Below, piece by piece: positions 27,526 through 27,551 of a stretch of DNA of 64,000 nt. Both the position numbers and the translations under genes were made by a program. Position 1 is the first letter of the stretch. Every line of letters begins with the position of its first letter. The notes under the pieces were generated by a model. The model worked only from the letters and a program-made list of their open reading frames with translations, was not told the DNA's origin and searched no databases. The stretch lies in the NCBI RefSeq assembly GCF_053078305.1, contig NZ_CP166879.1; one strand, 5' to 3'.

Positions 27526-27551
<26 letters not shown>
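26823..27551 (+). CDS. mpaA: Murein peptide amidase A (gamma-D-Glu-DAP amidase, M14-like), 242 aa
   Basis: Zinc-binding HxxE motif (GTHGDENSS). Start at MTVTRPRAERG. Confidence 0.85.

Follow-up and report, generated by a model that had tools for sequence, protein, structure and literature searches.

Overlaps between adjacent genes have been catalogued in Escherichia coli by Huvet and Stumpf, who counted 663 overlapping adjacent pairs, 75 of which are convergent (PMC4161906), and convergent overlaps have been ascribed to extension of a 3′ end after a stop codon is lost or shifted (PMC2716372). Convergent coding overlaps of the size considered here are routine and form an ordinary class. At the RNA level, the 2025 survey ExcludonFinder placed ycjG–mpaA among 165 convergent excludons, found in at least 50% of 58 MG1655 RNA-seq samples, and reported tpx–ycjG as a divergent excludon and mpaA–ycjG–tpx as one of three non-contiguous operons (PMC12288877). 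The mpaA/ycjG overlap is thus already known, having stood in standard annotation for decades as well as in the excludon catalogue. The products of the two genes, an amidase and an epimerase, act consecutively on murein peptides, as the preliminary description of this locus had said and as the published enzymology bears out (PMC2954226), and both genes are listed in the PgrR regulon (PMC5934670). Here we describe this junction in the window, by which we mean the whole 64-kb stretch of DNA that was analyzed. The window comes from an E. coli chromosome: a segment of 1,951 bases around the overlap has matches in 5,413 of 5,426 complete genomes of the species, the best at 99.9% identity. By the annotation of the closest genome it contains nine convergent pairs, one of which, mpaA/ycjG, overlaps.

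Reading frames at the overlap

The features that define the junction are as follows.

26823..27551, plus strand: mpaA coding region, murein tripeptide amidase, 242 aa, ATG start, TGA stop
27526..28491, minus strand: ycjG coding region, L-Ala-D/L-Glu epimerase, 321 aa, TAG stop
27526..27551, shared stretch read on the plus strand: last two bases of the MpaA P235 codon, K236–S242, TGA
27526..27551, shared stretch read on the minus strand: TAG, YcjG T315–L321, last two bases of the F314 codon
27529..27552, minus strand: conserved YcjG C-terminal segment F314–L321, FTTGELHL, with the motif F..G...L
27522..27548, plus strand: nonconserved MpaA tail H234–S242, HPKDAIRPS, after the conserved ..LLRW

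The MpaA ORF ends with TGA at 27549..27551 on the plus strand and the YcjG ORF with TAG at 27526..27528 on the minus strand, and these two stop codons delimit a shared stretch of exactly 26 nt, 27526..27551. The 3′ coding ends of two genes on opposite strands therefore share nucleotides, which makes mpaA/ycjG a convergent overlapping gene pair. RefSeq gives the same 26-nt overlap in the closest genome, in one K-12–like genome, and in three junction variants (strains differing by 1 to 3 bases), so that the 26 shared nucleotides reported in the preliminary description agree with both stops and with RefSeq. Because the overlap is set by the two stop codons, the choice of start codon is irrelevant to it, and as a deterministic reading of two stops its existence raises no question of chance.

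Both genes are real rather than spurious ORFs, as homologues, crystal structures, and enzymology attest, and conserved protein anchors the MpaA frame up to the overlap and the YcjG frame through it. YcjG matches Protein Data Bank (PDB) entry 1JPD over its full length, to L321, with three substitutions. Across 30 species the F..G...L motif is at least 80% conserved up to the last YcjG residue and most YcjG proteins are exactly 321 aa long, and this conserved C terminus fixes the position of the ycjG stop. MpaA, for which 3,179 homologues were found at E≤1e-10, ends differently. Its conservation stops at LL(R/H)W in an alignment of 18 homologues (W233 in E. coli, whose codon ends at 27521), and the tails beyond LLxW vary in sequence and length, in the 18 homologues and in the 30 species alike. 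Residues 1–237 are 100% identical to PDB entry 5HXD, the crystal entry of E. coli MpaA, the chain of which stops at D237, so that the last five MpaA residues are missing from it. This nonconservation, together with the length of the crystallized chain, suggests that the MpaA tail may be dispensable and that its last residues would not be needed for folding.

The two frames are locked together in the overlap, with mpaA codon position 2 facing ycjG position 3, position 3 facing 2, and position 1 facing 1. As a result of this phase, every silent change in ycjG alters an MpaA residue. Of 5,412 E. coli genomes, 4,471 carry the same 64-nt sequence across the junction, and the others differ from it by 1 to 3 bases (95–99% identity). 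Such near-invariance within E. coli is expected from the constraint on YcjG combined with shallow divergence.

The junction in relatives

Loci in other species were collected with an MpaA profile, using one genome per species, and 80 of the 398 confirmed loci were listed; both stop codons were located by a script that scanned from the start of each hit. Among the matches listed, ycjG is convergent with and adjoins mpaA in 29 species other than E. coli, the two genes overlapping in 24 of these and being separated by a gap in the remaining 5. The spacings, each among the matches listed, were distributed as follows.

26-nt overlap: E. albertii, two Citrobacter, and two Pantoea (5 species)
10-nt overlap: 11 species, including Enterobacter, Kluyvera, Pseudocitrobacter, and similar genera
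4-nt overlap, with overlapping stops TTAA/TTAG: Pluralibacter, Serratia, two Yersinia, and Mangrovibacter
19-nt overlap: Phytobacter
21-nt overlap: Erwinia persicina
29-nt overlap: one metagenome-assembled genome
3-nt gap: Enterobacter sp. Ag1
9-nt gap: Hafnia
36-nt gap: Microbulbifer
72-nt gap: Acerihabitans
160-nt gap: Vibrio

Klebsiella and one further relative also have the 10-nt overlap. Among the matches listed, ycjG was not found beside mpaA in two Pectobacterium or two Erwinia, in one of which the mpaA match is disrupted, nor at any nongammaproteobacterial locus, and Salmonella was not recognized among these 80 of 398 loci. Across these sequences, the tail-to-tail junction lacking a terminator is conserved, and the length of the overlap (4–29 nt) is not. 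The conservation of the overlap, which the preliminary description had put forward as a point to check, hence holds in part: some overlap is present in most Enterobacterales, but outside Escherichia and Citrobacter the exact 26 nt is absent from most relatives.

Alignment of the junctions indicates how the lengths are related. The 10-nt group reads TGG-CAx-CC[TCAnAnnTGA], and Escherichia and Citrobacter have one base fewer than this group between the Trp codon and the ycjG stop. Because of the missing base, MpaA continues in another frame in Escherichia and Citrobacter and meets its next stop 16 nt later; indeed, the difference between the two groups (26−10 = 16) is not a multiple of 3. The marks of an origin by 3′ extension were thus found, namely, a nonconserved tail, a conserved YcjG end opposite it, and a one-base frame difference. 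As the codon phase would lead one to expect, within the 26-nt clade the MpaA tails read PKDAIRPS, PKDAILRS, PKDGAARS, and PRDEAVRS, and YcjG holds FTTG(E/Q)LHL. The 26 nt in Pantoea were reached by a separate route, with a YcjG extended by 6 aa and a short MpaA of 235 aa, and the Pantoea overlap arose independently.

The surroundings of the pair differ among genomes. Klebsiella and one relative have a compact mppA–mpaA–ycjG–tpx block in which mppA, the gene for the murein tripeptide binding protein, is the immediate upstream neighbor of mpaA and diverges from it; in E. coli the two are separated by pgrR, ycjY, and genes, or remnants of genes, for hydrolases and oxidoreductases. One of these neighbors in the window, an SDR-family oxidoreductase gene upstream of mpaA (25895..26532, plus strand), is frameshifted by a 1-nt deletion near 26272, its ORF stopping at 26347 and the remainder lying in another frame. 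The gene is intact, at 212 aa, in NZ_CP062811.1, and the frameshifted copy is either a pseudogene (compare ymjC in K-12) or the product of a homopolymer sequencing error. The window is not collinear with NZ_CP062811.1, its closest RefSeq match: an IS3-family element that interrupts ycjY in that genome is absent from the window (at 24870), and ∼14 kb of the window (33318..47337) has no counterpart at the matching place there.

Transcription across the junction

A scan found no terminator-like site near 27526..27551 on either strand, and the junction does not contain the GC-rich hairpin with A-tract and U-tract of a bidirectional intrinsic terminator. Folding of both strands gave no unusual RNA fold at the junction (z from −1.5 to +0.5), and Rfam covariance models gave no match at E≤1 in 26000..29500, so that no known structured RNA family was found at the junction. 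With the scan empty nearby and fold energies ordinary on both strands, an intrinsic or bidirectional terminator at the junction was rejected. A weak 5-bp palindrome, GCATC-CTAAA-GATGC at 27521..27535, does lie across the ycjG stop; it has neither a U-tract nor a fold signal above that of shuffled sequences and is probably incidental.

Published transcript data bear on this region, and all published coordinates were mapped to window coordinates in the present analysis. The additional features are the following.

28610..29116, plus strand: tpx, between tyrR and ycjG and on the opposite strand, crossed antisense by tyrR-to-ycjG read-through
29160..30701: tyrR
27005..27225, minus strand: C-rich, G-poor stretch of the ycjG-strand RNA (C 24–27 vs. 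G 14–19 per 80 nt)
26951..27027: p19-captured RNA duplexes of 21–22 nt in mpaA, 499–575 nt past the ycjG stop, from part of the PMC7373196 supplement

On the ycjG strand, transcription runs into mpaA. Adams et al. (2021) list a Rho region at NC_000913.3 1390286(+), labeled "antisense mpaA," with a score of 3.94 and p of 7e-5 (PMC7815308 supplement). It maps to ∼27135, inside mpaA and 391 nt past the ycjG stop, at a resolution that is coarse because the method compares 800-nt windows. This published peak falls within the C-rich, G-poor stretch 27005..27225, which lies 300–520 nt past the ycjG stop and is likely the region where ycjG-strand transcription ends, within antisense mpaA. The source of some of this transcription is seen in SMRT-Cappable-seq data, which contain a "novel" unit, b1323|b1325, that begins at the tyrR promoter, crosses tpx in antisense, and covers ycjG in full (PMC6131387). 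As we read the columns, 39 of the 78 tyrR reads continue beyond the tyrR terminator, their median extension being 1,458 nt (PMC6131387 supplement); the column description apparently swaps two columns, and the median extension is 0 wherever the eighth column holds 0.

Double-stranded RNA has been captured at the locus as well. Huang et al. (2020) report a dsRNA cluster, S-116, over all of the tpx coding sequence and among the 20 most abundant (PMC7373196). The part of their supplement that covers mpaA gives two duplex pairs, U00096.2 1388416-1388439 and 1388470-1388494, which map to ∼26951–26973 and ∼27006–27027. As described there, these duplexes are of the RNase III type with 2-nt offsets and of low abundance, at ∼1 to 4 reads per million. 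None of the p19 duplexes among the supplement entries listed covers the 26 nt themselves. A further supplement row, 1386028-1388177, the columns of which are uncertain, may represent a unit on the ycjG strand that extends 258 nt beyond the ycjG stop.

On the mpaA strand, SMRT-Cappable-seq gives an mpaA-only unit starting 25 nt upstream of the ATG (PMC6131387 supplement), a published start that maps to ∼26798. The longest mpaA ORF begins at a TTG at 26763 (262 aa), the start used in older K-12 annotation. The published transcription start falls downstream of this TTG and so favors the RefSeq start, the ATG at 26823 (242 aa). A 3′ end from published Term-seq data, NC_000913.3 1390559(−), maps to ∼26862, 39 nt into the mpaA ORF (PMC7815308 supplement). 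Just before it is a hairpin at 26842..26862 on the plus strand with 6 GC base pairs, GCGCCG-AACG-CGGCGC followed by AUUU, which has a folding energy of −12.1 kcal/mol and is not unusual relative to shuffled sequences. Lying close to the mpaA start, the ∼26862 end could mark either premature termination or a decay end that was protected. No 3′ end of an mpaA transcript antisense to ycjG is present in the Adams et al. data (PMC7815308), and none is mentioned in PMC10349824.

Because each gene contains the stop codon of the other, full-length mpaA and ycjG mRNAs must be antisense to each other. The antisense overlap of the two mRNAs is real and extends for hundreds of nucleotides, far beyond 26 nt. 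The preliminary description had noted that the two 3′ ends are antisense, and this part of it stands, given the excludon listing, the Rho region, and the duplexes. Termination ahead of the overlap, which it had named as a refuting outcome, does not occur; the 26 nt, however, are not the relevant unit. The tyrR-[tpx]-ycjG layout, which is that of a non-contiguous operon, is more striking than the 26-nt overlap.

Origin of the overlap and comparison with known systems

We favor, with a probability of about three in four, the view that the overlap owes its length to tight gene packing combined with drift of stop codon or frame, as a neutral by-product. According to this model, mpaA and ycjG would have abutted without intergenic space or an intrinsic terminator since early in the Enterobacterales. 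The conserved core of MpaA ends at W233, four bases before the ycjG stop, and past this residue the ribosome would read the antisense of the last ycjG codons until it met an accidental stop. In Escherichia and Citrobacter a one-base change would then have shifted the frame and carried the end 16 nt further, giving the 26 nt and a 9-residue tail. With no terminator between the genes, transcription of each would enter the other, as published data show for the ycjG strand. In those data, ycjG-strand transcription stems in part from tyrR read-through and is ended by Rho several hundred nucleotides inside antisense mpaA, where sense/antisense duplexes form at low abundance. We judge that any interference would stem from this terminator-less convergent layout and not from the 26 nt, and that its predicted effect is small. 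The reciprocal interference raised in the preliminary description thus appears plausible only as a consequence of the layout, and it fits poorly with two consecutive enzymes that share the PgrR regulon and with the weak expression of both genes.

A counterpoint to the neutral reading is that the zero-spacer junction persists across deeply diverged Enterobacterales, in the 24 of 29 species noted above among the matches listed. Such persistence could reflect selection rather than inertia. Inertia nevertheless suffices to explain why a zero or negative spacer has been kept, because only an insertion can part two constrained gene ends that abut. That the zero-spacer junction is a selected regulatory device, in which RNase III and convergent transcription set the amidase:epimerase ratio or in which ycjG is coupled to tyrR read-through and mpaA to tpx, seems to us quite unlikely; in either case the pair would amount to a conserved excludon internal to one pathway.

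One form of selection would make the pair a functional convergent excludon, the terminator-less junction being favored since polymerase collision and RNase III cleavage tune the levels of the two enzymes or render them mutually exclusive. The abutment kept in most of the listed species would fit such a device, as would the RNase III-type duplexes inside mpaA and the mpaA antisense reads, which amount to ∼20–60% of sense by our own reading of unlabeled columns in part of the PMC7373196 supplement. The listing of ycjG–mpaA in PMC12288877 points the same way, but overlapping coding sequences meet the transcript-boundary criterion automatically, and that study could not validate convergent excludons with p19 data. 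Mutual exclusion, moreover, has no obvious logic for consecutive enzymes in one PgrR regulon (PMC5934670), and the weak expression of both genes in the published tables available from PMC7373196 would make collisions rare. Neither the length nor the phase of the overlap is conserved, and we found no reciprocal-expression data for mpaA/ycjG in the literature. A functional excludon is therefore unlikely.

Selection may instead have acted against termination over a longer range, with read-through coupling genes across an opposite-strand gene in the manner of a non-contiguous operon and the overlap arising as a side effect. Two runs would be involved, one from tyrR through antisense tpx to ycjG and the other from mpaA through antisense ycjG to tpx. 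For the first, there is a full-length tyrR+ycjG unit and the passage of half of the tyrR reads (39/78) beyond the terminator (PMC6131387), together with the dsRNA cluster over the whole of tpx, in the top 20 by abundance (PMC7373196); yet tyrR is not beside tpx in two other genera in which the mpaA/ycjG overlap is still present. The second corresponds to the listed mpaA–ycjG–tpx operon, accompanied by the divergent excludon tpx–ycjG (PMC12288877), but C-rich, G-poor stretches downstream of the mpaA stop would favor Rho termination before tpx, and tpx is expressed at a far higher level and from a strong promoter of its own. As an account of the overlap, this coupling is very unlikely.

Finally, an annotation artefact, in which one 3′ end is miscalled and the proteins do not truly overlap, might be suspected from the nonconserved MpaA tail and the crystal chain ending at residue 237, but it is scarcely credible and was rejected: the stop codons are unambiguous, conserved protein and crystal-structure sequences anchor both frames (MpaA to W233, with the first in-frame stop at 27549..27551; YcjG to L321, matching 1JPD to the last residue), and an MpaA that ended at 237 would still overlap ycjG by 11 nt.

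Under the neutral reading, the 26 nt would be an accident of where frame and stop happen to fall in one lineage, with a dispensable MpaA tail lying over a constrained YcjG C terminus. If any feature here is biologically relevant, it would be that two consecutive peptidoglycan-recycling genes have conservedly no terminator between them. Were this layout regulatory, it would provide a modest, well-conserved case of antisense control within one pathway. The overall significance of the overlap is small.

Compared with known systems, the junction departs from those closed by bidirectional intrinsic terminators, the usual solution where convergent genes meet. Such a terminator is absent from mpaA/ycjG, and termination on the ycjG strand is instead Rho dependent and takes place inside the neighboring gene. 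Non-contiguous operons, first described in S. aureus, are resembled by the reported read-through units tyrR-[tpx]-ycjG and mpaA-[ycjG]-tpx, but the likeness concerns the neighborhood and not the 26-nt overlap. The pair is listed as an excludon, and antisense transcription and duplexes are documented for it. In contrast, the defining outcome of excludons is opposing or mutually exclusive expression, and MpaA and YcjG are expected to be needed together. The pair matches ordinary convergent overlapping pairs (PMC4161906, PMC2716372) in every essential respect. The differences from these are minor, in that mpaA and ycjG encode consecutive enzymes of one pathway and keep a zero or negative spacer across most of the Enterobacterales sampled. 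As in that class, the partners are genuine opposite-strand genes with overlapping 3′ ends, a nonconserved tail has been extended into the neighboring gene, and the overlap is short and drifts in length.
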